Source: Akkermansiaceae bacterium
GTDB lineage: Bacteria; Verrucomicrobiota; Verrucomicrobiia; Verrucomicrobiales; Akkermansiaceae
Reading direction: 5' to 3'
Length of the DNA: 64,000 nucleotides
Assembly (NCBI GenBank): GCA_022510805.1
Contig: JAFLSS010000003.1
Span: 1,323 to 65,322 of the forward strand
The translations under genes and the position numbers were made by a program. Below, one piece after another: positions 1,821-63,907 of this stretch; positions within the stretch are counted from its first letter, which is position 1, and each line of letters begins with the position of its first letter. Under the pieces are notes generated by a model. It saw nothing but the letters and a program-made list of their open reading frames with translations, had not been told where the DNA came from and ran no database searches.

Positions 1821-2041
1821 CGCAATGAATCCAAAATCAGGCAGGATACACTGCAATGCTGCCGATGCCGCACGCGCATTTTTTGAGAGCGCTTTTTTAT
1901 CAACTGCATGAGAAAGGAGTCACGCGCACCGCGTTTTGTGCGATGGCGTTTAGGGGTGGGGGTGGTTGTTTGTTCTCGCGTTGGGTGGGGAATGGGTGTA
2001 TGCTGCCGGGGGGGGTGATGTTGTTTTTCCCTATTGAGCGT

Positions 2042-22549: not shown

Positions 22550-23650
22550 TTATTTGGAAATGGGGGAGTCCTTGGGGACTCCTAATGCCCAAAATGCTTT
22601 GGCGCTCTTGGCAGTCACGCCGTCCATGGCCAGGTAGCGCGTGCGGAGGAGCTCCAGAGAGGTGTGCCCCATATCAACCTGTAGCGCTGTCAAATCCTTG
22701 AAAAACTTTAGGTGATAAGAGGCAAAGGTGTGGCGCAGGATATCGGGCACCCAATCTGTGCACCCGGCTTCCTGCCGCAAGTTGTACCAGCGCTTGGCCC
22801 ATGTGCGCGGCACGATGGGAGCGGAGGGGGTGAAGTAATACATGCAATTGCGCAGCCAGTAAAAGAGCGGGGGGTACATGGTGACCTGGCGCGCGCCACC
22901 TGTTTTGGCATGCGCGGCGGGGATGGTGATCACCCGGTCTTCGAAGCTGATGTCGCTCTGGTGCAGGCGCAGGATCTCCGTGGGGCGCACGCCGGCCCAG
23001 AGCATGATGCCCAGCGCCGGCGCACAGGCGAGGTGGCGCTCCAGCAGGGAGGTGCGCAGCAGCGTGCTCACCTGCTCGATGGTGAGCACGCGGATGGGCT
23101 GCTCCTCATAGGGCGGCAGCACCACCAGATCCAGCGGGTTCGTGTCGCACCAGCCGTGGAGCCGCGCGTAGGAAAAGAGTGAGTGCAGAATCCGCCGCGC
23201 CTTGCGCCGCATCGGCACGGTCTTGAACACATACTCGATGCTGTGCTGGCAAAAATCTGAGGAGATCTCATTCATGCGCAGCCGGTTCCACTCCGGCATC
23301 TCGGCCACGAGGCGGTTGCACATCTGGCGCACTTCCTCAAAGGTGCGTGATTTGACGCTCGATTTGTATGTCTTATACCCGCGCACCGCTTCTTCGAAGG
23401 TGACGCTGCGCTGTGTCTGCTCAAAGGCGCACACGCCCAGCTTGATCACATGCCGGCAGTGCGTGAGCACGTTGGACATATCTCCCCCGCCCTCCCCCGG
23501 ACACTCCTCGAGCAACTCCATGATGAGCCGCACTGCATCTGTCGATTGCAGCTGCACATCCTTGAGCAGAAAATCAGCGGCTGTCTCATTAGACGTAATG
23601 ACAGTCTTGAGTTCACCCAAATCCAGAGGTAAGTCGTCGCTATTGCACAT
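22550..23650 (-). CDS. Tyrosine-type site-specific recombinase/integrase
   Basis: 366 aa. The catalytic set is present: AGVRPTEI (Arg), LRHTFAS (His-x-x-Arg), MGHTS (His) and RTRYL (Tyr). Confidence 0.85.
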   Translation of the reverse strand: MCNSDDLPLDLGELKTVITSNETAADFLLKDVQLQSTDAVRLIMELLEECPGEGGGDMSNVLTHCRHVIKLGVCAFEQTQRSVTFEEAVRGYKTYKSSVKSRTFEEVRQMCNRLVAEMPEWNRLRMNEISSDFCQHSIEYVFKTVPMRRKARRILHSLFSYARLHGWCDTNPLDLVVLPPYEEQPIRVLTIEQVSTLLRTSLLERHLACAPALGIMLWAGVRPTEILRLHQSDISFEDRVITIPAAHAKTGGARQVTMYPPLFYWLRNCMYYFTPSAPIVPRTWAKRWYNLRQEAGCTDWVPDILRHTFASYHLKFFKDLTALQVDMGHTSLELLRTRYLAMDGVTAKSAKAFWALGVPKDSPISK

Positions 23651-28400: not shown

Positions 28401-31325
28401 GTGCTTGAGGCTGGCGGATCTGGCGATGGGCTCGAAGGCGATGGGCGGCGTGTCGAACTTGCGGCCGTTGTTCTCCCAGCCTTGCATGATGAGCTCCTCA
28501 GACACACCCAAGCCCTTGGCAAGCAGGCGCCCATAGGCCTGCACCGGCGTGAGCCCCTCCACCAGCGCTTGGTGGTACTCTTGCGTGCAGGGAATGGCTT
28601 CCTCCATCTTTTCAATGGTGTCGCAAAGGCCGATGAGCACCTGCTGTGCGCTGAGCTCCTGCCGGCTTTTGACCAGCTCTTGAGCAGCTCGGCTGAGGAT
28701 GGTGTTTTCCTCTTTCCCATGGGGCGGGGTGGCCGACTCTGCCAGCGAATCAGGCGCCTCACCGCCGAATGCGCGTATACTGGTCGGCAGGTAGTCGAAG
28801 ATCTCCTCCTTGAACACGGCATCCCGCGCCTCACCGGCCATCGAGCGCACGATCGTGCGCGCTACTTTGACCAGCAAGTTTCTGCGGTCGAGCTCCACCA
28901 CCTTGCCCAACTCCTCAGCCGGCATAGGATTGCGCACGAGGGTGTCCATGGTATGGAACGCGAGGGCGTGGCGGTATGAGAGCTGCTCAAGCTGGCGGAA
29001 ACCACCGGCCGCGTAGGAATCATAATCTGCATGGGGCGACAAGCGGTAGCTGGCCTCCGCCTGCTCCGAGCCGGCGGCATGCTGATCCGGCAGCTCCGGG
29101 AGGGGCTCTGAGCCGAAGCCGGCGCGGCGCCACCATTGTTCGTAGAGGGAGCGCACCTGCTGCGTGCGCTCATGAGAAGCCGCGCGTATCTCCTCCGGCC
29201 AAGGGATGCCAGCCGACTTCTTCTTGGCAGATGAGGCGGGCGCCGGCAGCTTGAAAAACTCCCGCGCCGTCTTCTTATCCCAGAAGCCGCGGTAGTCCTC
29301 AATCCCCAGCAAGCGGAGCGCGCGCAGCGCGTATTCCGAGAAATCCACACTCTCAAACACCTTGCTCTCGTTGAGAGCCTTGTAGAGCAGCTCCGACCGG
29401 CGCGCCACATCCGGCTCCGCCAGCACCTCCGCGCGCTTCTCTGCGCTGATCCCGAGGCGCTCCATCATGGTGCCATCCCCGAGCACCGCGCGCTGTGAGC
29501 GGAAGTGCTGCAGCCCCAGTTGGCCGGAGCGCAGCAGCAGATACGGCAGCAGAGCCGCCGCCTCGTGCATGTTGCTCTCAATATCCGTCACATTGTCGCC
29601 GAAGCTCTCCCAGTCAATATTGGACGCCACGCCATTCACCCGCGCGGCCATCTCCTGCATCCCCAGCGCGCCGGCGTGCGACAACTTGCCTGCGGTGTAT
29701 TGCTTGAGCATCTCCTCCATGCCGCCGGCAGCCGTGAGATTCAGCGCGCCTATAGAATAGAGCGCACCCTTGCCGCGCGCCTGCGCAAAGCGGCTGATAC
29801 CGCGCTCCATGAGCTTGCCGCCCACCTTGTTGATCCCGGTGTAGATACCTGTTTGCAGCGCCCCGCCCAGCAGTCCGGCAAAGAACTGCAGCTCCTGGCG
29901 GCCCTGGGGCGCGCGCTCACGCGCCTCAGCCACCGCATCGCTCACAGAGCTGAGGGTGACCGCCGCGAACCCGGGCGCGCCGCAAAAACTCAGCACCGTG
30001 CTCGGCACACTCTGCGCCGCGTCCAACAAGTAGGCCGAGTACTCGTTCTCCTTGCCGGCCTGCACCAGCGGCCGCAGCTCCTCCTGCGAGAAGTGGCGCA
30101 GCTTGTTAAACACCTGCGACCTCTTGTCCCAGGCGTTGGCCAGCTCCTCAGCCCCGCCGACACCGGCGGCAGAGCTGTAGAGATGCAGGGAGCTGACACC
30201 CAGCTGCGAGAGCACGCGGTACATCCCGAAATTCATATTGGCAACACCGCGGCGCGAGGCCTGCATCATGCGCGTCACCAGATTCGGCACATCACTCTCC
30301 ACTTTCTTGTCCTGCGCCATGCCGGCGGCGAGGTAGAGCACCGTGTAGAACTCCGGCTCATCCAGCTCTGCCAGCTCATCCACCGCGCGCACCAGATCCG
30401 GCACCGCACCCGCCATGCGCGGCAGGAAAAAGGCATCTTCCTCCAGCGCAGAAAAAGCCTCCAGGCCACGCGTCACCCGCGCCGCCAAATCCTTGTAGCG
30501 CTCACGCGCCGCCTGCCCCTGGCGGAAAGCCTCCTCCGCCAGCTTGGCAGACTTGCCGGGCTTATCCTGGCCGAACAAGCGAGACGCCGTCTCCAGCGTC
30601 AGCGGGTGCATACCATCCAGCGCCGCCATATAACAGCGCTGAGCAATATCGCGCGCCATCTCGCGGATCGGCTCCTGCTCCTCCTGCTGCGAAAGCGCCA
30701 GGAAGAGCTCCTCCTCATTATCGCGCACACCAAAGCTGCGGGTGAGCTCCGCGCGGCGCTGCTTCCAGCGGGCATGCACCTGCTCGCGGGTATCGGAGGA
30801 GTGATCCACCACCCACGAGCGATTCAGCGTGCGCAGCATGCGGTACTCCCGCTGCTCCTCGGGCAGGTTCCACTCATCCGCCCCGGTGCGCTGCCGCACC
30901 TCTGCCGGCACAGTGGAGGGATCCCCCGTGAGTATGGCTCGCCAATACGCGCGCTTGCGGCCGGCAGCAGCGGCATCTGCCGCCTCTGCGGCGGCGGGTG
31001 GCTCCGGCTCAGCAGGCGCCTGCTCAGCAGGGGCCGGCGGCGGCTCCTCCGCGCGCTGGGGCACAGCGGGGGCCTCATCCTCCGGCTCATCCTCATGAAG
31101 CGGCGGCTCCGGCTGAGCATCTGCCGGCTCATCAGGCAAAGCATCTGCCGGCTCTTCCGGCAGGGAATGCGCCTCCTCAGCAGCAGGCGGCAGCTCAGCG
31201 GCGGCATCATCAGCAGCATCAGCGGGCGGCAGCTCAGCGGCAGCATCAGCGGCGGCAGGTGTATCAGCGAGGCTCTGCTCCGGCTCGAGCAGAGTTGTCG
31301 GTTGGTGTGTCATCGTGTCCATCAT
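25491..31325 (-). CDS. Giant hypothetical protein (about 1,944 aa), no recognisable domain
   Basis: Uninterrupted 5.8-kb ORF. The listed start 31334 is a TTG; the first ATG is at 31325. It has an acidic Pro/Ala-rich repetitive N-terminus and a Lys/Arg/Glu-rich C-terminus. Confidence 0.8.
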   Translation of the reverse strand: MMDTMTHQPTTLLEPEQSLADTPAAADAAAELPPADAADDAAAELPPAAEEAHSLPEEPADALPDEPADAQPEPPLHEDEPEDEAPAVPQRAEEPPPAPAEQAPAEPEPPAAAEAADAAAAGRKRAYWRAILTGDPSTVPAEVRQRTGADEWNLPEEQREYRMLRTLNRSWVVDHSSDTREQVHARWKQRRAELTRSFGVRDNEEELFLALSQQEEQEPIREMARDIAQRCYMAALDGMHPLTLETASRLFGQDKPGKSAKLAEEAFRQGQAARERYKDLAARVTRGLEAFSALEEDAFFLPRMAGAVPDLVRAVDELAELDEPEFYTVLYLAAGMAQDKKVESDVPNLVTRMMQASRRGVANMNFGMYRVLSQLGVSSLHLYSSAAGVGGAEELANAWDKRSQVFNKLRHFSQEELRPLVQAGKENEYSAYLLDAAQSVPSTVLSFCGAPGFAAVTLSSVSDAVAEARERAPQGRQELQFFAGLLGGALQTGIYTGINKVGGKLMERGISRFAQARGKGALYSIGALNLTAAGGMEEMLKQYTAGKLSHAGALGMQEMAARVNGVASNIDWESFGDNVTDIESNMHEAAALLPYLLLRSGQLGLQHFRSQRAVLGDGTMMERLGISAEKRAEVLAEPDVARRSELLYKALNESKVFESVDFSEYALRALRLLGIEDYRGFWDKKTAREFFKLPAPASSAKKKSAGIPWPEEIRAASHERTQQVRSLYEQWWRRAGFGSEPLPELPDQHAAGSEQAEASYRLSPHADYDSYAAGGFRQLEQLSYRHALAFHTMDTLVRNPMPAEELGKVVELDRRNLLVKVARTIVRSMAGEARDAVFKEEIFDYLPTSIRAFGGEAPDSLAESATPPHGKEENTILSRAAQELVKSRQELSAQQVLIGLCDTIEKMEEAIPCTQEYHQALVEGLTPVQAYGRLLAKGLGVSEELIMQGWENNGRKFDTPPIAFEPIARSASLKHYRQLTNYHPESEESDGVTYTRDQRPDGSYTGWYPAAEPAENDLVGHAHLFFLPKQAPIDLNRLAKINRPSQLPGPYRLRHKEGYCLHDDLSMDATEDLTRLWGSTATKLVPGINMAAYRHFLRGFADAGADDSVTPRIVQSEALNGSTVFDVDSTSSVSPLALMQTRFFVYWLRQLRSHVITPLRAHEFLQKQGYALGEDDVRVPNSQLASPLYRIPKRMSKSNPNEEVITSVAHALSEYTTVRYLAKMQELDVPESVKLWVGMSAFCPKPEIDPRGRGRNSPVVKLEEENRRLASWANRRTAEKLRSWSDAIEAARTKVRPDEFMDPILSDAFGENEDINCERGWCFRALGDQGLQNPQAGFWYMLAHPRAGWKRELLGDYHYNMLYDTVADYCEQDPYFSTLRRNKQGDISVDRVMGMLGDMLQKHPEMHAYSMAGAGGTSRLLRISLQDDVPAVPESAGSFARRGDRWETSPGCTYEPVLDELPEFLSRPHAKSYLGLLDELRQAAINYPRSTQEGVLWNGDAYGGLHGKTPPGLERNYSIELPISPLLRVLQSVGAAEGGKLNVCGVRVRGISPDLDLSPLINSVTVYRYNKDRSHVYRLMPGNINLSDPNLRLPYVVQCRNGMYMDSYEVIKNDQELGANSVAPLHLFYRSRERDNYRQGGEWADLALRHNLTQINRIATSALESGLTDYHTTYMQEYLMRLAEDSGFSKSLEQAEPGSLTMGEASLVNMLSDMVHVVCAPKPRAELRRLVDTTARMLDKDAKMRPLYSLLTYSNDKLAGNRKLHLRPSTLQEEWKAPAKKAARAEQEEPEAVETQGKAQPRKQAWENHLDQVIDETRRSFDQPDPEEEAKRLAEEEKRKSESAKRAERRRREAIRAAEEEERRKNPKAKRPFDPLATPFRIKKAEFEDPMPRIRELQAAEEAARQAIEEKRRQSRIRKYGERSENARQRRLKAQEEAEEKDKE

Positions 31326-31339
31326 AAGAAACAAAAAAA

Positions 31340-32584
31340 TTAGGAAAGAGAATCAGCCTCAAAGCAAACCCAGCGGTCCGACAAGCGGCGCAGCTCATGC
31401 ACCCACTGCGCCGCGCCCTCGCGCCCGCCCTGCTCCAGCCGCGCCAGGCACTCCTGCTGCAAATCCGCAAGGTGCCGCTGCGCCGCCGCATCCTCCGGGC
31501 AGCCCAGCACCCCATCCCGGTACAAATCCTGCACGCTGCGGCTGAGCAGCAGGCGGTCCTGCGCCGGGAGCCGCAGACTCTGCTCCACCCGCCCCAGCAA
31601 GCGGCGCTTATCCTGCGCCGGCAGCGGCGCCGTGGCGATGGCGAGTCGCAGCTGCTCAGCTGAGGCCTCATCCTCCGGGCACTCATTGGCCCGCTGCACC
31701 CAGTGGTTGAGCTGCGCCGGCGAAAGCTCGGCAGGCGCCTGCTGCAGCGCCGCCTCCGCCTGCTCGCGGGAGATCACGCCGGCCCGTGCAGCGAGATCCA
31801 GAAACTCCGGCTCGGGCGAGAGCTCATTCTGCAGGCAGTACTCCAGATCCTGAAGCACCTGTTTGCGGGCAGAGCGCCGCGCCACCCCCTTGGCCTGCTC
31901 CAGGCGGCGGGCATCTGCCTGCCGGCGGGGGAGCGCCTCCTCTGCCGCCTCTGCCAGCGCGCCCAACCCGCGCAGGGGTTCCACCTCCAAATCCTGCTGC
32001 CAGCGCGCCAAATGCGCCCGGCTCTCCGCCTGCTCATTCTCCTCCTGCATGCCCTCCTCCGGCACAAAAATACCCTGCCCGGCCTGTAGCCACTCCTGAG
32101 CCTGCACCACATTCCCCTGCTCGACAGCATCATCCACCCGCGCCCGCCACTGCGAGCGCGCCCGGTCAATCTTGCGCAGCTCAAAATCCCGCTGCGCCTC
32201 CACAGAAGCGCGGGCGCTATATGCATCTGCCAGCTTGCGGCCGGCGGCGCGCGCCTCCGGCGAGAGCTCCTCGATGGCCTCCGCCAGCTTGGGCGCAGAG
32301 GCCGCCTGCCAGGCGTAATTCCAATCTTGCACCTCCTGCTCCGCCAGCTCATCGCGCGTTTCATGGTCAATCGACTTGAGACGCTCCGAAAAATCAGCCA
32401 GCTCCCCCATCGTCGCCACACGAGCACGCTCCTCCAGCACCTTAGCCCCGCCCATCAGCGCGGCAGAAATACCCTCTCCCATGCGCCGGGCGGCATCAGC
32501 CCAGCCTGTGAGACCATCTGTCGGCACGTGCACCCCCCGAGAGGGCTGCCCCATCATGCCCCATTCTTTCATGCGGATTGACAT
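31340..32584 (-). CDS. Hypothetical, predicted all-helical Ala/Glu/Arg/Gln-rich protein
   Basis: 414-aa ORF ending 14 nt upstream of the giant ORF ATG. No family recognised. Confidence 0.7.
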   Translation of the reverse strand: MSIRMKEWGMMGQPSRGVHVPTDGLTGWADAARRMGEGISAALMGGAKVLEERARVATMGELADFSERLKSIDHETRDELAEQEVQDWNYAWQAASAPKLAEAIEELSPEARAAGRKLADAYSARASVEAQRDFELRKIDRARSQWRARVDDAVEQGNVVQAQEWLQAGQGIFVPEEGMQEENEQAESRAHLARWQQDLEVEPLRGLGALAEAAEEALPRRQADARRLEQAKGVARRSARKQVLQDLEYCLQNELSPEPEFLDLAARAGVISREQAEAALQQAPAELSPAQLNHWVQRANECPEDEASAEQLRLAIATAPLPAQDKRRLLGRVEQSLRLPAQDRLLLSRSVQDLYRDGVLGCPEDAAAQRHLADLQQECLARLEQGGREGAAQWVHELRRLSDRWVCFEADSLS

Positions 32585-41713: not shown

Positions 41714-42259
41714 ATGGCCAATCTGAATAAGGTAATGATTATCGGCAATCTGACAGCTGATCCGGAGGTGCGCACCACCCCGCGCGGCGCGTCCCTCACG
41801 GAGCTTCGCCTCGCTGTGAATCGCGTGTCCTCCGGTCCCAATGACGGCGAGCGCCGCGAGGAAACGACCTTTTTGGATGTGACATGCTGGGGGCGCACCG
41901 GTGAGGTGGCGGCGCAGTATCTCTCCAAAGGGCGGCCTGTCTTTATCGAGGGGCGCCTGCAGATGGATACTTGGGAGGATAAGCAGACGGGCCAAAAGCG
42001 CAGCCGCATCCGCATCGTGGCGGAGAATCTGCAGCTTCTCGGCGGCAGGGGTGACGCGCCCCAAGGCGGCGGGAGCCCGGCTCCGCAGCGCAGCTACGGC
42101 GGCTACCAACAGCAGGGCGGCTACCAGCAAGGCGGCTACCAGCAGGGCGGGTCTGACTACGCGCCCTCCCGCCCGGCCAATGATGGCTACGGCCGCCCGC
42201 AGGCTTCAGCTCCGGCGGCGCCCATGCCCCTGGAGGATGATGATGACATCCCGTTCTGA
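41714..42259 (+). CDS. ssb: Single-stranded DNA-binding protein
   Basis: OB-fold N-terminus MANLNKVMIIGNLTADPEVR, a Gly/Gln/Tyr-rich linker, and the acidic tip DDDIPF. Confidence 0.95.
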   Translation: MANLNKVMIIGNLTADPEVRTTPRGASLTELRLAVNRVSSGPNDGERREETTFLDVTCWGRTGEVAAQYLSKGRPVFIEGRLQMDTWEDKQTGQKRSRIRIVAENLQLLGGRGDAPQGGGSPAPQRSYGGYQQQGGYQQGGYQQGGSDYAPSRPANDGYGRPQASAPAAPMPLEDDDDIPF

Positions 42260-52663: not shown

Positions 52664-55231
52664 ATGAGAGCGCGCCCACTGCACTGGTCATCTGCATTCG
52701 TTTCAACCTGCATGGTTATCGCATCCCTTTCTTCTGTGTCAGCCCAGCAGTCGACAGGTGATGCATACTTGGATTCCATCCTGAGTAATCAATTTGACAA
52801 CAACACCGAGCAACAAGCTGAGGCAGAATCCTCCGCCTCCAAGGCTCCCACACCCAAACCCCAACTCATCGACACCGCACACGACACCAGACTGGTGGAT
52901 GACGCGGTGGCCCTGCGTGAGCTTGGCGCCTCCACCGGCCTCGGCCTGCTGGGCGGCCCGGCCAATTATGACGGCCTCGTGGTGCAGAGCGTAAGGATCC
53001 GCTACACCTCCGGCAAACCCACCGTGCCCGACCAGCGCCTGCTGGATGTCATCCAAACCTCCCCCGGCTCCCGCTACTCCTCCTCACGCATCAATGATGA
53101 CCTGGAGCGCCTCATGGAAAAAGGGCTCGTGAGCGGTGACGCCCGAGTGGCTGTGGCGCCTCAGGGTAGAGGCGTGAGTGTCATCTTCGAGGTAGCGCCC
53201 GCCAGCGTGATGGGCGGTGTCGGCTTCACCGGCAACCGCAGATACAGCGACAAAAAGCTGCGCGAAACCACAAAACTCCTCTCCAGCAAGGTCATCAATG
53301 ACCGCGCCCTCGCTGCGGCACGCGCAGAAATCATCCGCCTCTACCAAGAGGCCGGCTACCCGGATGTCAAAGTCTCCTGGCGCCACACCAAAACCGCCCG
53401 CACCGGGTATGATGACATCATCTTCGACATCCAAGAAGGCCGTGAGGTGCGCATGATGAACATCAAGTTCACCGGCAACCGCCAGTTTGACTCGAAGCAG
53501 CTGCGCCAGATGATGAAAACAGAAGAGCGCGGGCCCTTCCACCTCCTCACCAACTCCGGCCGCGTCATCCGCGAACAGCTCGATGACGACCTTCAGGAAA
53601 TCATCCGCCACTACCGCAACTACGGCTACCTGCGCGCCCGCATCGCCAAAGTCGAATTCATTGACAGCGGCAAACCGAACGGCCCCCAGAAGCTCACCAT
53701 GATCACCCACATCGACGAAGGCCCGCGCTACCGCGTGCGCCACGTCAGCTTCAGGGGCAACACCATCTACAAATCCAAAGAGCTCGAGCCCGGCATGAGC
53801 ATGCTGGATGGTGATGTGTACTCCCTGCAGAAAGTCTCTGATGACACCACCATGATCCGCCGCTACTACGGCGCCAAAGGCTATGCTGACGCCGACGCCC
53901 GCCCGGATATCAACGAAGTCGGCGTGGATAAAGACGGCACACGCGTCATCGACATCTGCTACAACATCACCGAAGGAAAACGCTACGCCGTGGGCCGTGT
54001 CAATGTGCGCGGTAACACCAAAACCAAGCGCCACGTCATCCTCCGCGAGCTCCCCCTCAAGCCCGGCCAGAACATGAACTCTGTCGACTTGGAAACCGCC
54101 AAGAAACGCCTTGAAAACCTCGGCTACTTCGCTGGCGTAGATGTTTCTCAAGCCGCCTCCGACCGCGCCGGCTACCGCGATATCAACGTCACCGTGCATG
54201 AGCGCATGACCGGCAACCTCACCGTGGGTGCCGCCATCTCCTCCATCGAGAGTGTCTACCTGTATGCCAACGTCACCCAGTCGAACTTCGACGTGCGCGG
54301 CCTCTTCGGCAGCGGCTCACTGGTGGGCGGCGGCCAGCGCCTCTCCATCTCCGGCAAGCTCGGCTTCGACTTCCAGAGTGCATCCATCAGCCTGCTCGAG
54401 CCCTGGTTCCTGGACCGCAAGCTCGCCCTGGGCAATGAGATCTACTTCTCGAACTCCTCCTACTTCAGCGATTACTACGTGCAGAAAAACTACGGCTACG
54501 CCGTGTCCCTGCGCCGCGCTCTCGATGAGAAAAACTCCGTCAAACTCGAGTACCGCATCGAACACTACAACCTGACTCCCCAAGGTGCCGCCCCGCTCTA
54601 CTTCCTCTACAGCTGCGGCGACTACAACCGGAGCAACATCAATCTCGCGTACGAGTTCGACTCGCGTGATGCCATCATCAACCCGCGCAAGGGTGGCAAC
54701 TTCGAGGCCCACATCGGCTACAGCGGCCCCGGCAGCACCATCCAAACCTACAGCGCCGGCATGAGCGGCTCCGTCTACTACAACTCCATCTGGGATTCCA
54801 TCCTCAGCCTCAACTTCGGCGTAGAAACTGTCGACTCCGTGAAGAAAGACGAGATGGTGCCCATCTTCGAGCGCTGCTACCTCGGCGGCCCGATGAACCT
54901 GCGCGGCTTCCGCTTCCGCGACGTCGGCATGATCGACGAGCGCATCACGGGTGATGAAACTATGGGCGGCAACTCCTCCGCATTCGTCCAGGCAGAAGTC
55001 ACCATACCCGTGGTAGAAACAGTTCGATTCGCCATGTTCGTGGATGCCGGCTTCGTGCACGAAGACTCGTTCGACTTCGGATTCAACAGCATCTCCGCTG
55101 ACTATGGTATCGGCCTGCGCATCAACCTGCCCATGGGCCCGCTCGCCGTAGACTACGCCATCCCGTTCAAGATCGGCAATGCTGTTGACCGCGACGGCCA
55201 ATTCCAATTCTACGTAGATTACAAATACTAA
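52664..55231 (+). CDS. bamA: Outer membrane protein assembly factor BamA
   Basis: 855 aa with a signal peptide, repeated POTRA segments, and a C-terminal Omp85 barrel ending in FYVDYKY. Confidence 0.9.
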   Translation: MRARPLHWSSAFVSTCMVIASLSSVSAQQSTGDAYLDSILSNQFDNNTEQQAEAESSASKAPTPKPQLIDTAHDTRLVDDAVALRELGASTGLGLLGGPANYDGLVVQSVRIRYTSGKPTVPDQRLLDVIQTSPGSRYSSSRINDDLERLMEKGLVSGDARVAVAPQGRGVSVIFEVAPASVMGGVGFTGNRRYSDKKLRETTKLLSSKVINDRALAAARAEIIRLYQEAGYPDVKVSWRHTKTARTGYDDIIFDIQEGREVRMMNIKFTGNRQFDSKQLRQMMKTEERGPFHLLTNSGRVIREQLDDDLQEIIRHYRNYGYLRARIAKVEFIDSGKPNGPQKLTMITHIDEGPRYRVRHVSFRGNTIYKSKELEPGMSMLDGDVYSLQKVSDDTTMIRRYYGAKGYADADARPDINEVGVDKDGTRVIDICYNITEGKRYAVGRVNVRGNTKTKRHVILRELPLKPGQNMNSVDLETAKKRLENLGYFAGVDVSQAASDRAGYRDINVTVHERMTGNLTVGAAISSIESVYLYANVTQSNFDVRGLFGSGSLVGGGQRLSISGKLGFDFQSASISLLEPWFLDRKLALGNEIYFSNSSYFSDYYVQKNYGYAVSLRRALDEKNSVKLEYRIEHYNLTPQGAAPLYFLYSCGDYNRSNINLAYEFDSRDAIINPRKGGNFEAHIGYSGPGSTIQTYSAGMSGSVYYNSIWDSILSLNFGVETVDSVKKDEMVPIFERCYLGGPMNLRGFRFRDVGMIDERITGDETMGGNSSAFVQAEVTIPVVETVRFAMFVDAGFVHEDSFDFGFNSISADYGIGLRINLPMGPLAVDYAIPFKIGNAVDRDGQFQFYVDYKY

Positions 55232-55782: not shown

Positions 55783-55799
55783 TGTTCCACATGGAACAA
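55783..55799. repeat. 17-nt palindromic motif TGTTCCACATGGAACAA, copy 1 (upstream of argS)
   Basis: Exact 17-mer, also present at 57634-57650. It ends 27 nt upstream of the argS -35 hexamer. Confidence 0.9.
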
Positions 55800-55866: not shown

Positions 55867-57630
55867 ATGACTATTCCAGCACTATTATCCGACCAGGTTG
55901 CACAGGCTTTTCGCGCTATTTTAGGTGATTCACTGCCGGAGGGTTTCTGCCCTGTTGTATCCGCCTCACAAGATTTGCGCTTTGGCGATTACCAGTGCAA
56001 CGCCGCCATGATTCTTGCCAAGCAGGTAAAAATGAACCCGCGAGAACTCGCCGGCAAGGTCGTAGAAGCGCTGCGCGCCTCCTGCTCACAGGCTATTCCT
56101 GAGATCGCCGGGCCCGGCTTCATCAATTTCCGCATCAACGCTGCGTATTATGCAGAGCGCATGAAAAGCATGCTCGGGGATGAACGCCTCGGTGTGCCGC
56201 TCGCTGCAGAGCCCAAGTCCATCGTCATCGACTTCTCTGCTCCCAATGTGGCCAAGCCCATGCACATCGGCCATATCCGCTCCACGATCATCGGCGACAC
56301 GCTTGCCCGCCTGGCGCGCTTCATGGGGCACACGGTGATCACTGATAACCACATCGGCGACTGGGGCACGCAGTTCGGCATGATTCTCTGGGGCTGGAAA
56401 CACCTTCTCAACCAGGAGAATCTCGCCAAGGATCCCATCGAAACCCTCCTCTCCGTCTACAAGGAGGTCAATAAACTCTGCAAGGAATCACCCGATCTGC
56501 TGGTCGATTGCAAAGCCGAGCTCGTGAAGCTGCAGGGCGGTGACCCCGAGAATCTGAGCATCTGGAAACGCTGCGTCAGCCTCACTCAATCCGGCCTTGA
56601 GAAAATCTACGAACAGCTGGATATTCACTTCGATTACTGGCTCGGCGAGAGTTTCTACAATGATGCCCTCGAGCCCCTGGTAAATGACCTGCTGAACAAA
56701 GGCATCGCCCGCGTGAGCGAGGGCGCGGTGTGCGTGTTCTCTGACGGCTTCCACAAGCCGCAGCAGGACCCCTTCCTCGTCAATAAAGATGGCGAGTGGC
56801 AGCCGGTGCCGGCCATTATCCGCAAGGCAGATGGCGCATTCCTCTACGCCACCACAGATCTGGCCACGCTGGATTACCGCATCGCCCACTTCAATGCTGA
56901 CTCGATCTGGTATGTGGTGGGCGCTCCGCAGGACAAGCATTTTAAGCAGATTTTTGACATCGAGCGCATGCGCGGCGTGCAGGGTGACTTCCGCCACGTG
57001 GCGTTCGGCTCCATCCTCGGTCATGACCGCCGGCCATTCAAGACGCGTGATGGCGAGACCGTGAGCCTGCAAGATGTCATCGACGAAGCCATCCAGCGCG
57101 CCACCCGAGTCATCGAAGAAAAGAGCCCCGACATGCCGGCAGATGAGAAAGCACGCATCGCGCGCATGGTAGGTGTCGGCGCCGTGAAGTTCGCTGAGCT
57201 CTCCCAAAACCGCCTCAGTGATTACATCTTCGACTGGGACAAGATGCTCGCCCTCACCGGCGATACCGCGCCCTACCTGCAGAACTCCTACGTGCGAGTC
57301 AAATCCATCTTCCGCAAACTCGAAGAGGGAGAATATACACCCGCCGCTGCAAGCCCGGAGCTTAGTGAAGATGCAGAAATCCACCTCGCGCGCCTCCTCG
57401 CGCGCTATGCTGAGATCGTGCCCTCCACACTCGATGACTGCCGCCCGAATCTCCTGGCGGCCTACCTGTACGAGCTGGCGCGCGCATTCCACAGCTTCTA
57501 TGAAGCTTGCCCCGTGCTCAAGAGCTCGGGAGATACCCGCACCACGCGCCTCAGCCTTTGCGACCTCACAGCCCGCGTCCTCAAGCAGGGCATGGGACTG
57601 CTCGGCATCGAAATGCCGGATCGTATGTAA
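55867..57630 (+). CDS. argS: Arginine--tRNA ligase
   Basis: ATG at 55867 (MTIPALLSDQV...). Class-I HIGH variant (PNVAKPMHIGHIRS) and a C-terminal DALR anticodon-binding domain ending in IEMPDRM. Confidence 0.9.
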   Translation: MTIPALLSDQVAQAFRAILGDSLPEGFCPVVSASQDLRFGDYQCNAAMILAKQVKMNPRELAGKVVEALRASCSQAIPEIAGPGFINFRINAAYYAERMKSMLGDERLGVPLAAEPKSIVIDFSAPNVAKPMHIGHIRSTIIGDTLARLARFMGHTVITDNHIGDWGTQFGMILWGWKHLLNQENLAKDPIETLLSVYKEVNKLCKESPDLLVDCKAELVKLQGGDPENLSIWKRCVSLTQSGLEKIYEQLDIHFDYWLGESFYNDALEPLVNDLLNKGIARVSEGAVCVFSDGFHKPQQDPFLVNKDGEWQPVPAIIRKADGAFLYATTDLATLDYRIAHFNADSIWYVVGAPQDKHFKQIFDIERMRGVQGDFRHVAFGSILGHDRRPFKTRDGETVSLQDVIDEAIQRATRVIEEKSPDMPADEKARIARMVGVGAVKFAELSQNRLSDYIFDWDKMLALTGDTAPYLQNSYVRVKSIFRKLEEGEYTPAAASPELSEDAEIHLARLLARYAEIVPSTLDDCRPNLLAAYLYELARAFHSFYEACPVLKSSGDTRTTRLSLCDLTARVLKQGMGLLGIEMPDRM

Positions 57631-57633
57631 TTT

Positions 57634-57650
57634 TGTTCCACATGGAACAA
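57634..57650. repeat. 17-nt palindromic motif TGTTCCACATGGAACAA, copy 2 (4 nt after the argS stop)
   Basis: Identical to 55783-55799. Confidence 0.9.
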
Positions 57651-57766: not shown

Positions 57767-58390
57767 TCAGAAGTCAAAACTCACGCCACCGCGGATGCAG
57801 TGGTAAAGCTGAGAGCGGGTGTTGCTGCCCTCAATGCTGTTCAATCCCGGCTCCGCTGTTGATCCGAAGAATTGGTAGGCGAGGAAGAGATCAAAGTTTT
57901 GCGTGAGGTAGAACTTGAGTCCTGCTTCGGCAGAGTATGCAAAGCCGTACTCTGATCCGTGGTAGCGGCGTGTCTCCAGCGGGGTGGTGTATTTGTATTT
58001 GAGGCTTTCGTTGATGACACCGATATTGGCGCCGATGAAGCCATGTACATGCTCGCTCATGCGGTGCGTGTAGCGGTAGCCGGGCATGAGGTAGAAATTA
58101 TTGACGCGGACATCATTGCCGAATTCACCGTTACCCTTGTCATCGGACCCGGTGGCGAATCCGAAGCGCAGGTTGAAGGATGAGTTATCATTCACGGTGT
58201 AGACTCCCGTGAGGTCCACTCCGAGGGTATCCACCTTCGGGCCGTTTGCATCATTAGTGCGCACGAGGTCGCGGGCGGCGAAATTGTAGCTCACGCCGAG
58301 CTCCAGAGAGTAGGGGTTCACAGGCTCAGTATATGTGCCGGCCAGTGCAGCGGGCGCCAGTGCGGCCAAAGCGAGTAATGTAGTTTTCAT
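57767..58390 (-). CDS. Outer-membrane beta-barrel protein (OmpA-like/OmpW-like small barrel)
   Basis: The ATG at 58390 gives MKTTLLALAALAPAALAG. Alternating amphipathic strands, with a C-terminal GGVSFDF. Confidence 0.75.
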   Translation of the reverse strand: MKTTLLALAALAPAALAGTYTEPVNPYSLELGVSYNFAARDLVRTNDANGPKVDTLGVDLTGVYTVNDNSSFNLRFGFATGSDDKGNGEFGNDVRVNNFYLMPGYRYTHRMSEHVHGFIGANIGVINESLKYKYTTPLETRRYHGSEYGFAYSAEAGLKFYLTQNFDLFLAYQFFGSTAEPGLNSIEGSNTRSQLYHCIRGGVSFDF

Positions 58391-58696
58391 GGTTGTGTTA
58401 TTTATCATTTTTGTACCTGGGTGCTACAAAATCGCTTGTAGCCAAGGATTGCCCCGATTGTAACCACGAGGAGTCCGAATTGTCAAGTAGCCCCAATCCA
58501 ATAGTTATACACACTCTATCAATATGTTACGTATTAAATTTCTATTCTCTGCGCCTGTTGGATCAGTATGACAGGCGGCGATTTTGGGCTTAATTGTTGG
58601 GTTGTGGGGCGCTTTTGTTCTCTGCCGGGCCCGGGTGGGCAAAAAAGCCTGCCTGCTTGCTTGACAAGTCAAGCTTTCTTTTGGTACTCTGGAGTT

Positions 58697-59317
58697 ATGA
58701 ACTCGATGCTGCGACTTGTACTCCTGTGTTTTGGGCTGATGCTATGCTCCTGTGCCTATGTGCAAACACACAAGCGGGTGGAGGAGATGGGCAGTTATTA
58801 TGAGGGGTATTTGCTGAAGTCGGATTCCATGCGCCTGTTCCGCCAGGGGGATTCATGGTTTCTCTCTGCCTCTAAGGCTCGCTACAAGCGCACATTCCCT
58901 CTGGTGCATGATTCTGTGTTCCGCAGAAATAATTATGAGCCTTCCTTTGAGTTGGTGCATGATGCCTCTGCGCCCATGGTATACCATGAGATTTCTTCCA
59001 ATGCGGCGGCTATCTTGCAGCGGTCAGATGGCTATTTTGACCTGCGGGCTCTTGTGGGGGATATGCAGCGCTGCTCTGACACCTGGCTGGAGGAGCTGCC
59101 CGGCGCCGTTTCCTACCCCATCGCGGCCCATATCGGCGGTGATCAGTCATTCTCCATCCCCGGGTCTCGCGTGCCGCACTCGACTTCTCTCTCAAAAAAG
59201 GCGCTCGGCAAGCTGGATCTCGTGGTGGTGGATGCTCCGCTGACTGTTGGCTACAATGTGGCCATCCCGCTGGTGGCGCCTTTTGTCTTCTTCTATGAAT
59301 TCCTCCAAGAAGATTAA
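58697..59317 (+). CDS. Hypothetical lipoprotein
   Basis: ATG at 58697 with lipobox MNSMLRLVLLCFGLMLCSC. No family recognised. Confidence 0.6.
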   Translation: MNSMLRLVLLCFGLMLCSCAYVQTHKRVEEMGSYYEGYLLKSDSMRLFRQGDSWFLSASKARYKRTFPLVHDSVFRRNNYEPSFELVHDASAPMVYHEISSNAAAILQRSDGYFDLRALVGDMQRCSDTWLEELPGAVSYPIAAHIGGDQSFSIPGSRVPHSTSLSKKALGKLDLVVVDAPLTVGYNVAIPLVAPFVFFYEFLQED

Positions 59318-59351
59318 GTCACAAGCTGTTTGTGTAGATATTAACATGAGG

Positions 59352-59552
59352 TGTCAATAAGTAGGTGAATAAATGGTGGGTAAACATGTGGATAAGTGAG
59401 TCATTCGCATTCATGGCGGATTATTCTCTTGTTTGTCGACATGCTTTTTTCTCTCCAAGATCATGATTTTCATGAGGTCCTGTTTTCTTATTCACTTATT
59501 CACACACCTGATGATGATGAATTTAAATAGGTATATATATTCTTCTTCTTCA
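59352..59552. promoter_or_regulatory. DnaA-box-like 9-mer array plus an AT-rich trinucleotide-repeat segment
   Basis: Four same-orientation 9-mers lie at 59352, 59364, 59375 and 59387; the last is a perfect TGTGGATAA, the reverse complement of TTATCCACA. Two opposite-orientation boxes lie at 59488-59496 and 59496-59504 (TTATTCACA). These are followed by GATGATGATGAA, TATATATAT and TTCTTCTTCTTC. Confidence 0.45.
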
Positions 59553-59569
59553 AGCTAGCCTTTTTTGCC

Positions 59570-60655
59570 ATGCCTTGTTCTCCTGTCTCAGCTGATGATT
59601 CTCGCTGGATGCGCCGCGCGCTCGAGTTGGCTCAGCGCGGTGTGGGCACCACCAGCCCGAATCCGCCGGTGGGTGCAGTTGTTGTGAAAGATGGGCATGT
59701 GCTGGGTGAGGGGTACCACGAGCGCGCCGGGGAAGCGCATGCTGAGCGCCGCGCGCTGCAGGATGCGCGTGATCGCGGGTGGGAGCATGAGCTCGCCGGC
59801 GCCACGCTTTATGTGACATTGGAGCCCTGCTCGAGCCATGGGCGCACGCCTCCCTGCACGGAGGCTATCCTTGAATCAGGTATTGGCCGGGTGGTGTATG
59901 GGGCGGTGGATCCTGATAAACGCCACAGAGGGCGCGCAGACGCGCTTTTGCAGGCGGCCGGGGTACTGGTGCAGGGCAGGGTGGAGGAAGAGGCTTGTAG
60001 GGCCTTTCTGGAGCCTTGGGCGCATGCTGTGAGGACGGGTCGCCCCTGGGTACTGGCAAAAGTGGCGAGCACGCTGGATGGGAGGCTCACGCGGCGCACG
60101 GAGCGCTGGCTGAGCTGCCGGGAGTCACTAGCCTTTGCACATCTGCTGCGTGTGCAGAGTGATGCCATCTTGGTGGGGGGGCAGACAGTGCGGGCGGATT
60201 TGCCGGCGCTCACGATACGCTGCCCTCAGGAGCCGGCGCCTGCAGCCAAGCAGCAGCCGTGGCGGGTGGTGCTCACGCGGCGGCGCGAGTCCCTGCCGGC
60301 GGAGGCGCCGCTGTTTGCAGATGAGTATGCTGAGCGCACGCTTGTCTATGAGGATGTGCAGGATGCTGAGGCGATGCTTCGCGAGCTATATGAGTGCTAT
60401 GGAGTGGTGAGGCTCATGCTGGAGTGCGGCGGCAGGCTGCTGAGGTATTTTCTGGAGCAGGGGCTAGTGAATGAGTGGGTGCAGATCATGACTCCTTATG
60501 TGGGGGGAGGGCCGGAGCTGCTGCTGCCCGGGGAGTGGCTGCCGCGCGAGCTGCGCTTGGAGGAGATGGAGTGCAAGGCGCTGGGGCGGGATGTGCTGCT
60601 GCGCGGCCGGGTGGCTGCATCACATGGACTCGAGCATCTGCAACGCCTCGGCTAA
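59570..60655 (+). CDS. ribD: Bifunctional riboflavin biosynthesis protein RibD (deaminase/reductase)
   Basis: CMP/dCMP deaminase zinc motif HAE...PCSHGRTPPC, followed by a RibD_C reductase domain. Confidence 0.9.
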   Translation: MPCSPVSADDSRWMRRALELAQRGVGTTSPNPPVGAVVVKDGHVLGEGYHERAGEAHAERRALQDARDRGWEHELAGATLYVTLEPCSSHGRTPPCTEAILESGIGRVVYGAVDPDKRHRGRADALLQAAGVLVQGRVEEEACRAFLEPWAHAVRTGRPWVLAKVASTLDGRLTRRTERWLSCRESLAFAHLLRVQSDAILVGGQTVRADLPALTIRCPQEPAPAAKQQPWRVVLTRRRESLPAEAPLFADEYAERTLVYEDVQDAEAMLRELYECYGVVRLMLECGGRLLRYFLEQGLVNEWVQIMTPYVGGGPELLLPGEWLPRELRLEEMECKALGRDVLLRGRVAASHGLEHLQRLG

Positions 60656-63600
60656 TTTATCTGCCGCATTTTTCTTCTGCAGGCGGGGGAAGCGGCGGTT
60701 GAGCAAGATGTAGTCATTATTGCGCGTGAGCATGAGCTTTTGGCCGCTGATCTCCACCATGGAAATATGCCTCCCCGAGGCGAGTATCTTGATTTTTTGA
60801 AGAATGATCAGCTGCTTAGCCTCGTCGGGCAGGCGGCCGAAGCGGTCCTCCCACTGCTTGGCCAGCTCATCCAGCCCCTCGGTGCGGGTGGCTTTGGCGA
60901 GCTGAGTGTAGCACTCCATGCGCGTTTTGGTGGCCGGCACATAGGAGGCGGGGATGTAGGCGCCCAGCAGGCTGGAGGTATCGCTTCGCGTGGCCATGAT
61001 CGCTTCGCTCACGCACAGGAAATCTGCCTTGACTTGAGCGCTCACGCGCAGGGAGGGCTTGATGCCGCGCAGGCGGTCGATGGACTGCCGGAGCAGCTGG
61101 CAGTAGAGCTCGAACCCGATGGCGGCAATATGGCCGCTTTGCTGGGTGCCCAGCAGGTTGCCGGCGCCGCGGATCTCCAGATCTCGCATGGCGATCTTGA
61201 AGCCGCTTCCCAATGCGGTGTATTGCTTGATGGCCGACACGCGCTTGCGGGCATCTCCTGTGCACAGCGCCTCCTCCGGCAGCAGCAAGTAGGCATAGGC
61301 GCGCTGGTTGCCGCGCCCCACGCGGCCGCGCAGCTGGTACAGGTCCGCCAGGCCGAAGCGGTCTGCCCGGTCGATGATGATCGTATTGGCATTGGGGATG
61401 TCGATACCGCTTTCAATGATCGTGGTCGAGAGGAGCACATCTGCCTTGCCCTCCACGAATTGGGTCATGATTTTTTCGAGCTCTGCCTTGTCCATCTGCC
61501 CGTGGCCGGTGACGATGCGCGCCTGCGGCACGAGTTGCCGCAGCAGGGCTTCCATCTTGTAGATGGTCTGCACGCGGTTGTGCAGGAAGAAGACTTGGCC
61601 TTTGCGCGCGAGCTCGGCACGGATGGCTTTTGTGATGAGCTCCTCATTGAAGGGGCACACGCTGGTGCTCACCGGCAGGCGGTTGGAGGGCGGGGTGTCG
61701 ATGGTGCTCATATCGCGCGCGCCCATGAGCGCCACATAGAGAGTGCGCGGGATGGGGGTGGCGGAGAGGGTCAGCATATCCACCATGCGGAAAAAGCGCT
61801 TGAACTGCTCCTTGTGCCGCACGCCGAAGCGCTGTTCTTCATCAATGATGGCAAGCCCGAGATTCTTGAATGTCACATCCTTGGAGAGCAGGCGGTGCGT
61901 GCCGATGACGAGGTCGACATCGCCATTTTTCAGGCCGGCCAAGATCTCTGTTGCCTTGCGCGCAGAGGTAAAGCGGCTGAGCATTTCGATGCGGATGGGG
62001 TACTCGCTCATGCGCGCGCGGAAGTTGCGGTAGTGCTGATCTGCCAGCACAGTGGTGGGCGCGAGGAGGGCGGCCTGCTTGCCGCCGGTCACGCATTTGA
62101 ACGCCGCGCGCAGGGCCACCTCAGTCTTGCCGAAGCCGACATCCCCGCAGATGAGGCGGTCCATGGGCCGCGCGGCCTCCATATCAGCCTTCGTTTCCTG
62201 GATAGCGCGCAGCTGGTCAGGTGTCTCGCGGAAGGGGAAGGAAGATTCAAATTGCCACATCCACGCAGAATCTGCCGGGTGGGCATAGCCGGGGTTGCTC
62301 TCGCGCTCGGCCTGCACCTCGAGCATCTGGGCGGCGTAGTCTGCCACGGCGCGCTCGGCCGCTTGGCAGGCGCGCTTCCAGCGGGCATCTCCCAAGCGGT
62401 TGAGCTCCGGTGTTTTCGAGCCGAGCCCCACATATTTGGACACAAGGTGTGCCTGGTGCAGGGGGATGCGCAGCAGCACCCCGCCCGCGTAGCGGATGTG
62501 CATCTCTTCCTCACCCGTCTCTTCATGCCGCACTATACCCACAAATTGCCCGAGCCCGTGGGCGGCGTGGATCACCAAATCCCCGGATTCGATTTCGCGC
62601 AGGGGGGCCTGAGCCTCAGCGAGCCGTATGCGGCTCTCGCGGGTGCGCATGCGGCGGTGGCGCGGCGAGGTATGGCGGCCGAAAATCTCTGCCGCAGAGA
62701 GCACTGCCAGCTGCGCGCCGGGTATGGTGAATCCGAAAGGCAGGTTGCCATCCCGCGCCTGCACGGCATCCCATGCAGGATCCTGCCCGCATATCTCCTC
62801 AAATCTCTTTTTCTCACCCTCGTGCGGGAAATACATGACCACGCGCCACTTCTCCCTGCGCCAGCGCAGAAGGATGGAGTTCACATACTGCCGCCGGGCT
62901 TCCTGCATCACAAAATCCCCGGATTCGAAGGACCCCAGCGGCGTGGGGTAAAAAGCCAGGCCATCCTTCTTTCGGAAGCCGTCAATCTCCGGCGCGATGT
63001 CTGCGACATCCGGCAGAGTCTCATACACCAGCACATCCCCCGGCACCCCGCACCCGGGCAGGGAGATCACGCAGTCCTCCGGCCGGATCCAGTCCTGCAG
63101 ATTCTGATTCTCCGGCGGCTCATCCAGCAGCAGATCCGCCCGTTCCAACTTGCGGAACGAGAGTTGCGAATCCACATCAAACGCGCGGATGCTGTCGATC
63201 TCATCCCCAAAATACTCAATGCGCAAAGGCCAGGCTGTCTGCAGGGGGAAGACATCGAGAATACCGCCGCGCAGGCTCCACTGATTACGTGCTGTCACCT
63301 GATCTTGGCGCTCAAAGCCGCGCTCGGTCAAGATCTCCGCCAGCCTCTGCAGGCTCAGGGAGTCATCCCCCGTGCGCAGCGAGAGGGACACCTGCTGCGC
63401 CGGGGAGAAATCCGGCACCGCCTGGCGCAGGCAAGCCGCCGTCACCACCACCACCTGTGCCTCACCCGGGCTCGTATACAAGCGGTGCAGCGCTTCCAGG
63501 CGCTCGGCGCTCACATCCGGGTCACCCATACCCTGCCGGGCATTCCACTCTTGCTCAGGCACAAAGATGCAGGGCAGGTGGCTCCATATCGGCCATTCGG

Positions 63601-63907
63601 CGGCTATGCGCTCTTGAGTCGGCAAGGAGTCTGCCACCACCCACACACGGCGTGCCCGCGGCTGGCGGCTCGCCACCAGAGCAGCCACAAATGAGAACGC
63701 CGCCTGGCAGGTGCCGGGGAAGACCAAGGGCTCCTCCCGCGTGTCATCCCGGCAAAGCTTAGCCAGCTCCTCTGCAAAAAGCGGAGAAGAAGCCACGATC
63801 TCTGTGAGTGGTTTAGCGATGGTGGGTGCAGTATAATAAAATGAGAATTCAATGTCAACGCAAGTGTGCCTATCAATCTGAAAAAGATGCACCGAGGGGG
63901 AAAACAA
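60620..63907 (-). CDS. mfd: Transcription-repair coupling factor
   Basis: 1095 aa. CarD-like segment GDLVIHAAHGLGQF and SF2 helicase motifs GDVGFGKTEVA, DEEQRFGV and SATPIPRT. The C-terminal TRCF domain is present. The 3' end overlaps ribD by 36 nt. Confidence 0.9.
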   Translation of the reverse strand: MFSPSVHLFQIDRHTCVDIEFSFYYTAPTIAKPLTEIVASSPLFAEELAKLCRDDTREEPLVFPGTCQAAFSFVAALVASRQPRARRVWVVADSLPTQERIAAEWPIWSHLPCIFVPEQEWNARQGMGDPDVSAERLEALHRLYTSPGEAQVVVVTAACLRQAVPDFSPAQQVSLSLRTGDDSLSLQRLAEILTERGFERQDQVTARNQWSLRGGILDVFPLQTAWPLRIEYFGDEIDSIRAFDVDSQLSFRKLERADLLLDEPPENQNLQDWIRPEDCVISLPGCGVPGDVLVYETLPDVADIAPEIDGFRKKDGLAFYPTPLGSFESGDFVMQEARRQYVNSILLRWRREKWRVVMYFPHEGEKKRFEEICGQDPAWDAVQARDGNLPFGFTIPGAQLAVLSAAEIFGRHTSPRHRRMRTRESRIRLAEAQAPLREIESGDLVIHAAHGLGQFVGIVRHEETGEEEMHIRYAGGVLLRIPLHQAHLVSKYVGLGSKTPELNRLGDARWKRACQAAERAVADYAAQMLEVQAERESNPGYAHPADSAWMWQFESSFPFRETPDQLRAIQETKADMEAARPMDRLICGDVGFGKTEVALRAAFKCVTGGKQAALLAPTTVLADQHYRNFRARMSEYPIRIEMLSRFTSARKATEILAGLKNGDVDLVIGTHRLLSKDVTFKNLGLAIIDEEQRFGVRHKEQFKRFFRMVDMLTLSATPIPRTLYVALMGARDMSTIDTPPSNRLPVSTSVCPFNEELITKAIRAELARKGQVFFLHNRVQTIYKMEALLRQLVPQARIVTGHGQMDKAELEKIMTQFVEGKADVLLSTTIIESGIDIPNANTIIIDRADRFGLADLYQLRGRVGRGNQRAYAYLLLPEEALCTGDARKRVSAIKQYTALGSGFKIAMRDLEIRGAGNLLGTQQSGHIAAIGFELYCQLLRQSIDRLRGIKPSLRVSAQVKADFLCVSEAIMATRSDTSSLLGAYIPASYVPATKTRMECYTQLAKATRTEGLDELAKQWEDRFGRLPDEAKQLIILQKIKILASGRHISMVEISGQKLMLTRNNDYILLNRRFPRLQKKNAADKLAEALQMLESM

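Follow-up and report, generated by a model that had tools for sequence, protein, structure and literature searches.

A DnaA-box cluster between a lipoprotein gene and ribD is a probable chromosomal replication origin in the Akkermansia family

Main

We propose that a 252-bp intergenic region at positions 59318–59569 of the window (the whole 64-kb stretch of DNA analysed here) is the chromosomal oriC of an uncultured Akkermansia-family bacterium of the Verrucomicrobiota, a reading to which we assign a probability of about 0.8. The proposal draws on a cluster of DnaA boxes, a layout preserved in 11 lineages, an unwinding module, the instability of its AT-rich tract, neighbouring parS-like sites, a switch in GC skew, gene swaps that are symmetric about the site and the independence of the element from the ribD promoter. 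An initial annotation had put forward a candidate oriC here, and the conserved layout, the unstable tract, the parS-like sites, the skew switch and the symmetric swaps all lend weight to that suggestion.

The locus and its neighbours

The intergenic region is bounded by the end of a lipoprotein gene (59317) and the start of ribD (59570). Its GC content is 36%, compared with about 60% in the surroundings, in agreement with the AT-rich gap of about 250 bp described in the initial annotation. The left flank encodes a lipoprotein of 206 amino acids (58697–59317, plus strand) from a lineage-restricted family. The mechanically called start of this open reading frame (ORF), at 58568, is too early; the conserved protein begins at 58697 and has a conserved Ser-Cys at residues 18–19, which we read as a lipobox. 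A search found 44 clusters of the family, every traced one of which comes from relatives of Akkermansia, and no Pfam domain was found in it. On the right, RibD (59570–60655, plus strand; Pfam RibD_C and deaminase domains) is followed by Mfd (60620–63907, minus strand). Further left are a small beta-barrel OMP (57767–58408, minus strand) and the housekeeping neighbours ArgS (about 55867–57630), BamA (52664–55231) and SSB (41714–42259), all on the plus strand.

Linkage to dnaA and dnaN is common for oriC but not defining. A Pfam-type domain scan of the ORFs detected no dnaA, dnaN or parAB in the 64-kb window, which bears out the initial observation for dnaA and dnaN. A 72-kb metagenome contig, L019, matches the window at 252 of 252 bases of the intergenic region and reaches about 7 kb further right than the window does; none of these genes was among those called in the extension, and linkage to dnaA or dnaN is thus lacking across the window and the extension together. 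The nearest genomes in a genome scan were two Akkermansia metagenome-assembled genomes, with RibD proteins 58–59% identical to that of the window; the scan gave one further hit, which was unrelated. Exact protein matches came from metagenome contigs only, of at most 172 kb, and a metagenome scan added two short loci.

Searches for RNA features at the locus were negative. A possible FMN riboswitch upstream of ribD was dismissed, because nothing in the window matched an Rfam family at the gathering threshold; at E values of up to 10, the segment 59200–59700 returned two chance-level hits and nothing more, and the window contains no tRNAs. Elsewhere in the window, positions 1–1674 hold a gene with a GmrSD-type restriction endonuclease C-terminal domain and DUF4268, with about 45% GC compared with about 62% elsewhere; because its composition is sharply unlike that of the rest, it is probably a horizontally acquired defence gene. 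Three consecutive minus-strand ORFs without a Pfam match occupy 23881–32584, one of them a giant of 1947 amino acids (25491–31334). Just outside the right end of the window, directly past mfd, relatives share a conserved tyrosine-recombinase gene (L019 14380–15420, L012 15223–16200 and L013 5444–6448), with 62% identity between the L012 and L019 copies.

A cluster of DnaA boxes unique in the window

The 9-mers, box pair, GAT repeat and AT tract quoted in the initial annotation are all where it had placed them. Four DnaA boxes, reading TTATCCACA on the minus strand, form a reverse array at 59352–59395 (TGTCAATAA starting at 59352, GGTGAATAA at 59364, GGTGGGTAA at 59375 and TGTGGATAA at 59387), a candidate DnaA-oligomerisation array. 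The start-to-start spacings of 12, 11 and 12 nt held on recount, as did the description of the fourth box as perfect and of the other three as carrying two mismatches each; the fourth is the sole perfect DnaA box (TTATCCACA) in the 64-kb window. Boxes of the opposite orientation lie on both sides of this array. To its left, the alignment of orthologous intergenic regions revealed a degenerate forward box, ATATTAACA (59338–59346). To its right are a weak forward box with two mismatches, TTGTCGACA, in a variable middle segment (59433–59441) and a forward tandem at 59488–59504, composed of TTATTCACT (59488; two mismatches to TTATCCACA) and TTATTCACA (59496; one mismatch), which overlap by 1 nt through a shared T.

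Region 59318–59569 contains eight sites within two mismatches of TTATCCACA (shuffle mean 1.16, maximum 6) and five within one mismatch of TTAT[CT]CACA (shuffle mean 0.27, maximum 3), as judged against 5000 dinucleotide-preserving shuffles made from the AT-rich intergenic region itself. AT-richness does not account for the cluster, since every one of these composition-matched sequences fell short of the observed number of sites. Elsewhere in the 64 kb, the richest 300-bp stretches contain four weak sites, and the cluster is thus unique in the window. The region therefore has the three or more DnaA boxes in non-coding DNA that are expected of an oriC. We also considered a second box cluster in the gap between the OMP and lipoprotein genes, and rejected it: this gap holds just one near-consensus box (58505) and a divergent promoter.

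The layout is conserved in eleven lineages

We compared the region across eleven lineages: the window (with L019), L003, L006, L008, L012, L014, L015, L017 (with L018), L020, L021 and L022. In all eleven, the element sits between the lipoprotein gene and ribD, the syntenic conservation expected of an oriC; the upstream lipoprotein gene is clearly homologous in L020 and L022 and weakly so in L021, and in the relatives, too, this gene adjoins the element. Across lineages, identity of the flanking lipoprotein is as low as about 27–57%, and most of the intergenic DNA cannot be aligned. The order of parts is nevertheless kept: a forward box, the reverse array, about 100 bp of variable sequence, a final forward box, a spacer, four triplets and an AT tract.

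The first forward box reads cTTATTCACA in relatives and starts 14 nt before the reverse array, leaving a 5-nt gap between them; it is TTATTCACA in L003, L006, L014, L020 and L021, TTATCCACA in L017 and the degenerate ATATTAACA in the window. The reverse array (TGTSAATAA in relatives) has two to four boxes, mostly three or four, spaced every 11–12 nt at the same position. Between one and three forward boxes occupy the middle segment in relatives, at positions that do not align. The final forward box is often doubled and is TTATTCACA in 8 of the 11 lineages and TTATTAACC in L020. Boxes are retained in L008 and L017, in which the spacer, triplets and AT tract are present in degenerate form only. 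Pooling 71 boxes from the regions of the 11 lineages gave the consensus TTATTCACA, in agreement with the relaxed DnaA-box consensus TTWTNCACA (PMC7561715). Every box-dense 300-bp window in L020–L022 covers the lipoprotein–ribD intergenic region.

Comparison of the lineages also separates the element from the ribD promoter. In L020, the core adjoins the upstream gene, and about 480 bp separate it from a canonical ribD promoter further downstream, and in L003, L006, L021 and L022 a separate promoter of the TTGACA-N17-TACAAT type stands between the core and ribD; the element is therefore not the ribD promoter. Near-consensus ribD promoters were located at 1941–1969 in L003, 1183–1211 in L006, 9964–9992 in L020, 9965–9993 in L021 and 9966–9994 in L022. 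These promoters end about 5–11 nt ahead of the called ATG, a distance that suggests that the ribD mRNA of the relatives is leaderless or nearly so. The ribD gene of the window has no promoter of the TTGACA-N17-TACAAT type. A promoter scan at the core gave only one 9-of-12 site (59436–59464), and we discarded a reading of the core as a sigma-70 promoter, since its TTCACA and TTTAAA, 17 nt apart, match poorly and are not conserved.

A triplet repeat and an unstable AT-rich tract follow the last box

In a basal unwinding system (BUS), a short spacer separates tandem DnaA boxes from DnaA-trios, beyond which lies an AT-rich tract (Richardson 2016, 2019; Pelliciari 2021, PMC8287927). In the window, the last box is followed by the 5-bp spacer CACCT (59505–59509) and then by the triplet repeat GATGATGATGAA, that is, GAT GAT GAT GAA (59510–59521, plus strand), which reads 3′-CTACTACTACTT on the minus strand. 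Directly past the triplets lies an AT-rich tract (59520–59551; AT-rich from 59522), a candidate DNA-unwinding element. In a nearest-neighbour stability profile of 30-bp windows across the 64 kb, the 30 bp from 59520 are the least stable duplex of all (−30.1 kcal/mol, compared with a mean of −46.9 and an s.d. of 4.1), and 59520–59550 is about 4 s.d. from the window mean; the boxes are thus adjoined by an AT-rich tract, as expected of an oriC. In relatives, the repeat is directly followed by about 20 bp of T/A-rich sequence with ATTC at its end, in the place of the AT-rich tract of a BUS. The tract of the window overlaps a TTC repeat, TTCTTCTTCTTC, that the initial annotation had counted as part of the layout. 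This repeat is present, at 59540–59551, one base off the earlier count; it is missing from every relative, and we therefore dropped it as a component of the element and regard it as probably incidental.

Under the published search rule for a BUS, a box, single or in tandem, may have no more than two mismatches and must be followed within 16 bp by three or more consecutive 3′-NAN-5′ triplets (PMC8287927). Both TTATTCACT and TTATTCACA fall within two mismatches and lie within 16 bp of the triplets. The spacer measures 3 bp in the canonical trio frame and 5 bp to the GAT frame, both within the 16-bp limit. In the canonical DnaA-trio frame, the minus strand reads 3′-GAC TAC TAC TAC-5′ from 59508, so that the window, in the format of the published table, is AATAAGTGT GTG GAC TAC TAC TAC. 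On the complement of TTATCCACA, the triplets of the window and of 7 of the 11 lineages pass this permissive 3′-NAN-5′ rule, and those of L015 and L021 do not. The trio consensus 3′-GAT-5′ itself is unmatched by GATGATGATGAA in every frame and on both strands.

The initial annotation had cautioned that a 5′-GAT repeat does not have the polarity of the DnaA-trio motif, and published scaffolds and tables uphold this caveat. In the supplementary table of PMC8287927, the complement of TTATCCACA is written 3′ to 5′ as AATAGGTGT, followed by the spacer and (NAN)n trios, and the E. coli-type (Shigella) row reads AATAGGTGT CCCGTCACGC TAG GAT TAT. In the published scaffold of S. elongatus, the boxes are followed by GCCCC-TACTACTAC on the box strand, and the C. 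difficile origin reads 5′-CACCTACTACTATTACTACTATGA-3′ (PMC7561715). From the table, the S. elongatus scaffold and the C. difficile sequence, we conclude that canonical origins carry 5′-CTA-3′ repeats on the box strand.

What is conserved in this family is a four-triplet element, 5′-(G/T)A(T/A/G)-3′, placed 5 bp past the last box on the strand that reads TTATTCACA. Four top-strand 5′-NAN-3′ triplets are present in 9 of the 11 lineages, and the central A of the box-strand triplets is invariant (36 of 36), the changes being GAT to GAA, GAT to TAT and GAA to GAG. In L015 and L021 (GATGAAGATGAA), the canonical bottom-strand NAN frame is broken and the box-strand 5′-NAN-3′ pattern is kept. The spacer is exactly 5 bp in all nine lineages that carry the repeat (L003 and L006 were re-read by eye), and this constancy speaks for a reading of the repeat whose register is fixed by the last box. 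The pattern of triplet conservation favours the box strand over the canonical strand as the one that would be read. Triplet polarity is the one non-textbook feature of the element.

parS-like sites, GC skew and symmetric swaps centre on the locus

Clusters of parS sites near replication origins are well established, and their clustering has been used to place origins in a Hi-C study (PMC10197239). The window contains two identical copies of a parS-like palindrome, TGTTCCACATGGAACA, which flank argS: one at 55783–55798, upstream of the gene, and the other at 57634–57649, 4 nt past its stop codon. They are 3.6 and 1.7 kb to the left of the box cluster. At 13 of its 16 positions, TGTTCCACATGGAACA equals the parS consensus TGTTNCACGTGAAACA, and it carries a symmetric T-to-C and A-to-G change; only 0.02–0.15 such 16-mers would be expected in the window by chance. 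This parS variant also occurs near the cluster in L003, L007, L008, L012, L014, L015, L020, L021 and L022, and most relatives have between one and five parS-like sites within 10 kb of it, with up to five in L021. Both sites in the window are thus 16-bp near-consensus palindromes that are close to the proposed origin and present in more than one copy, like chromosomal parS. They share with chromosomal parS the 16-bp palindromic form and a grouping of several copies no more than 10 kb from the boxes, and differ from it in their variant sequence (TGTTCCAC[A/G]TGGAACA) and in having no parB gene in view.

The third-codon GC skew of the plus strand is negative (−0.1 to −0.53) from about 28 to 57.6 kb in almost every gene, whichever its strand, reaching −0.46 to −0.53 at 49–55 kb, and takes values of +0.48, +0.12 and +0.43 in the next three genes past about 57.7 kb. 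The switch from negative to positive thus falls at about 57.7 kb, some 1.7 kb to the left of the boxes. L008, L012, L015 and L017 likewise change from negative to positive at the argS/OMP boundary. The positive skew to the right of the site extends for about 4–5 kb only; the skew is weak past 62 kb and close to zero beyond mfd. An oriC is expected to lie at the GC-skew minimum of the whole chromosome, and the switch seen here is a local one. The skew switch reported in the initial annotation is real, but the window contains other sign changes, with positive skew also at 1.8–8 kb and 14–25 kb. The further caveat that the 16 kb of plus-strand genes on the left would be head-on to forks leaving the site is sound.

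Within the same skew profile, two ORFs without a Pfam match (1856–2737, plus strand, and 2772–3554, minus strand) have plus-strand third-codon skews of +0.79 and +0.66, far beyond the range of every other gene in the window. A tyrosine-recombinase gene of the phage integrase family (22550–23650, minus strand) adjoins one of the window's least stable AT tracts, at about 23684, and lies within the 14–25-kb stretch, whose skew is opposite to that of the 28–57-kb stretch; this may be a mobile-element boundary.

Comparison of gene order gave a further indication that the locus is a centre of symmetry. Origins and termini characteristically lie at the centre of symmetric inversions. The genes for MatE and FMN_red lie 8–10 kb to the left of the cluster in L012 (495–2578) and 8–10 kb to the right, inverted, in L019 (17994–19990; 71% and 77% identity). 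BamA is on the left and on the plus strand in most lineages (L019 3145–5664) and on the right and on the minus strand in L015 (18727–19498; 76% identity). Because the swapped blocks keep their distance from, and orientation relative to, the cluster, we conclude that the inversions are symmetric about the site.

Alternative explanations

Several observations count against an oriC: the window lacks dnaA, the right-hand skew is short, there are additional sign changes, genes on the left are head-on, the repeat is not 3′-GAT-5′ and the module is degenerate in L008 and L017. Sites rich in DnaA boxes that are not origins are known in model bacteria, such as datA and DARS in E. coli and the DnaA-box clusters of B. 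subtilis. The region could likewise be a site that titrates or reactivates DnaA, or a promoter region under DnaA control that serves ribD or the lipoprotein gene, in which case the true oriC would lie elsewhere, for instance beside dnaA. The position of dnaA outside the window, where its locus could carry a rival box cluster, the need for a ribD promoter in or near the region and the weak right-hand skew past 62 kb would all suit this explanation. Sites of this type are, however, not known to combine a box tandem, phased triplets and the locally least stable AT tract; the roughly 480 bp between the element and the ribD promoter in L020, together with the separate promoters of L003, L006, L021 and L022, argue against a promoter function; and it is around this locus that the skew changes sign, parS-like sites cluster and genes have swapped sides symmetrically. 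We therefore consider a non-origin role unlikely.

It is also conceivable, but very improbable, that the region is an auxiliary or former origin, or one half of a bipartite origin such as those known from B. subtilis, H. pylori and C. difficile (PMC7561715). The middle segment of the window does have fewer strong boxes than that of relatives, but a bipartite arrangement would need a second box cluster outside the region examined: the 64 kb holds none, its best other 300-bp windows having four weak sites and the OMP–lipoprotein gap the single near-consensus box at 58505, and the box-dense windows of L020–L022 all fall on one intergenic region. Finally, AT-rich DNA favours near-matches, and three of the four phased boxes carry two mismatches, as might be expected if 9-mers and repeats without a DnaA-related function had arisen by chance in AT-rich promoter DNA. 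This explanation fails on the shuffles, of which 0 of 5000 equalled the observed count, and is effectively refuted by conservation, as the positions, orientation and spacing of the boxes, the 5-bp spacer and the triplets are kept in 11 lineages in which the surroundings are not. Taken together, these comparisons leave oriC as our preferred reading of the region.

Discussion

If region 59318–59569 is the oriC, DnaA binding, unwinding and helicase loading are predicted to take place there, a model that we infer from the arrangement of motifs. DnaA would bind the boxes of the lineage, with their consensus TTATTCACA; the four boxes spaced 11–12 bp apart at 59352–59395 would nucleate a helically phased DnaA oligomer, and the opposed tandem boxes at 59488–59504 would place DnaA beside the triplet repeat at 59510–59521. 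The oligomer would then engage one strand and open the very unstable AT tract at about 59520–59550, which would serve as the site of helicase loading. ParB would be loaded at the parS-like sites, 1.7 and 3.6 kb to the left, and these sites would mark the domain of the origin.

The element resembles a BUS in that only a few bp separate tandem boxes in the orientation of TTATCCACA from successive triplets, with an AT-rich tract beyond them, and its spacer begins with CAC, as does that of C. difficile (5′-CACCTACTACTA...). It differs from a BUS in that its box strand carries 5′-GAT/GAA-3′ rather than the canonical 5′-CTA-3′ (which is 3′-GAT-5′ on the opposite strand), its triplets in the canonical frame being 3′-TAC-5′. 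The oriC of E. coli has a DnaA-oligomerisation region with two opposed box arrays and an unwinding element beside its R1 box. With it the element shares two sub-arrays of opposed orientation with boxes about 11 bp apart, an unwinding element that flanks the outermost box on the side predicted by its orientation (the E. coli layout is seen in the Shigella row) and a location that does not adjoin dnaA. Unlike E. coli, however, it has no 13-mer repeats or GATC clusters, its AT tract is much shorter (about 20–30 bp), its box consensus is TTATTCACA and not TTATCCACA, and its flanks are the lipoprotein gene and ribD instead of gidA and mioC.

Within the family, DoriC lists a predicted origin of A. 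muciniphila ATCC BAA-835 (NC_010655) at about 958.7 kb (ORI94030296, positions 958,674–958,698; table of PMC8287927). Its module, written 3′–5′ as AATAATTGT AAACTT TAC TAT GAG, resembles that of the window: a box of the TTATTAACA type is joined by 6 bp of spacer to triplets of the TAC type. The triplet run is shorter and more degenerate than in the window, and the comparison is one of module sequence and not of locus. In the part of the published table that the search covered, we found no other origins with TAC-type trios. In the literature searched, this DoriC-derived entry was the only record, and no experimental origin mapping in the Akkermansia family was found. In one study, dnaA was simply taken as the origin (PMC6624636), and another study points out that the origin of a gut bacterium is not necessarily found at dnaA.

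Our analysis provides a sequence-level origin candidate for the Akkermansia family, a medically prominent gut lineage. Knowing the correct origin helps to estimate growth rates from metagenomic coverage, to orient assemblies and to build shuttle vectors. More tentatively, and at odds that we rate as low, Akkermansia-family origins may use an unwinding module of non-canonical polarity, a mirror image of the DnaA-trio. Were this true, DnaA would engage the opposite strand or have specificity for 3′-TAC-5′ trios, or another factor would read the repeat. The conserved off-consensus triplet block thus offers a cheap natural test of how strict the single-strand motif of the BUS is.
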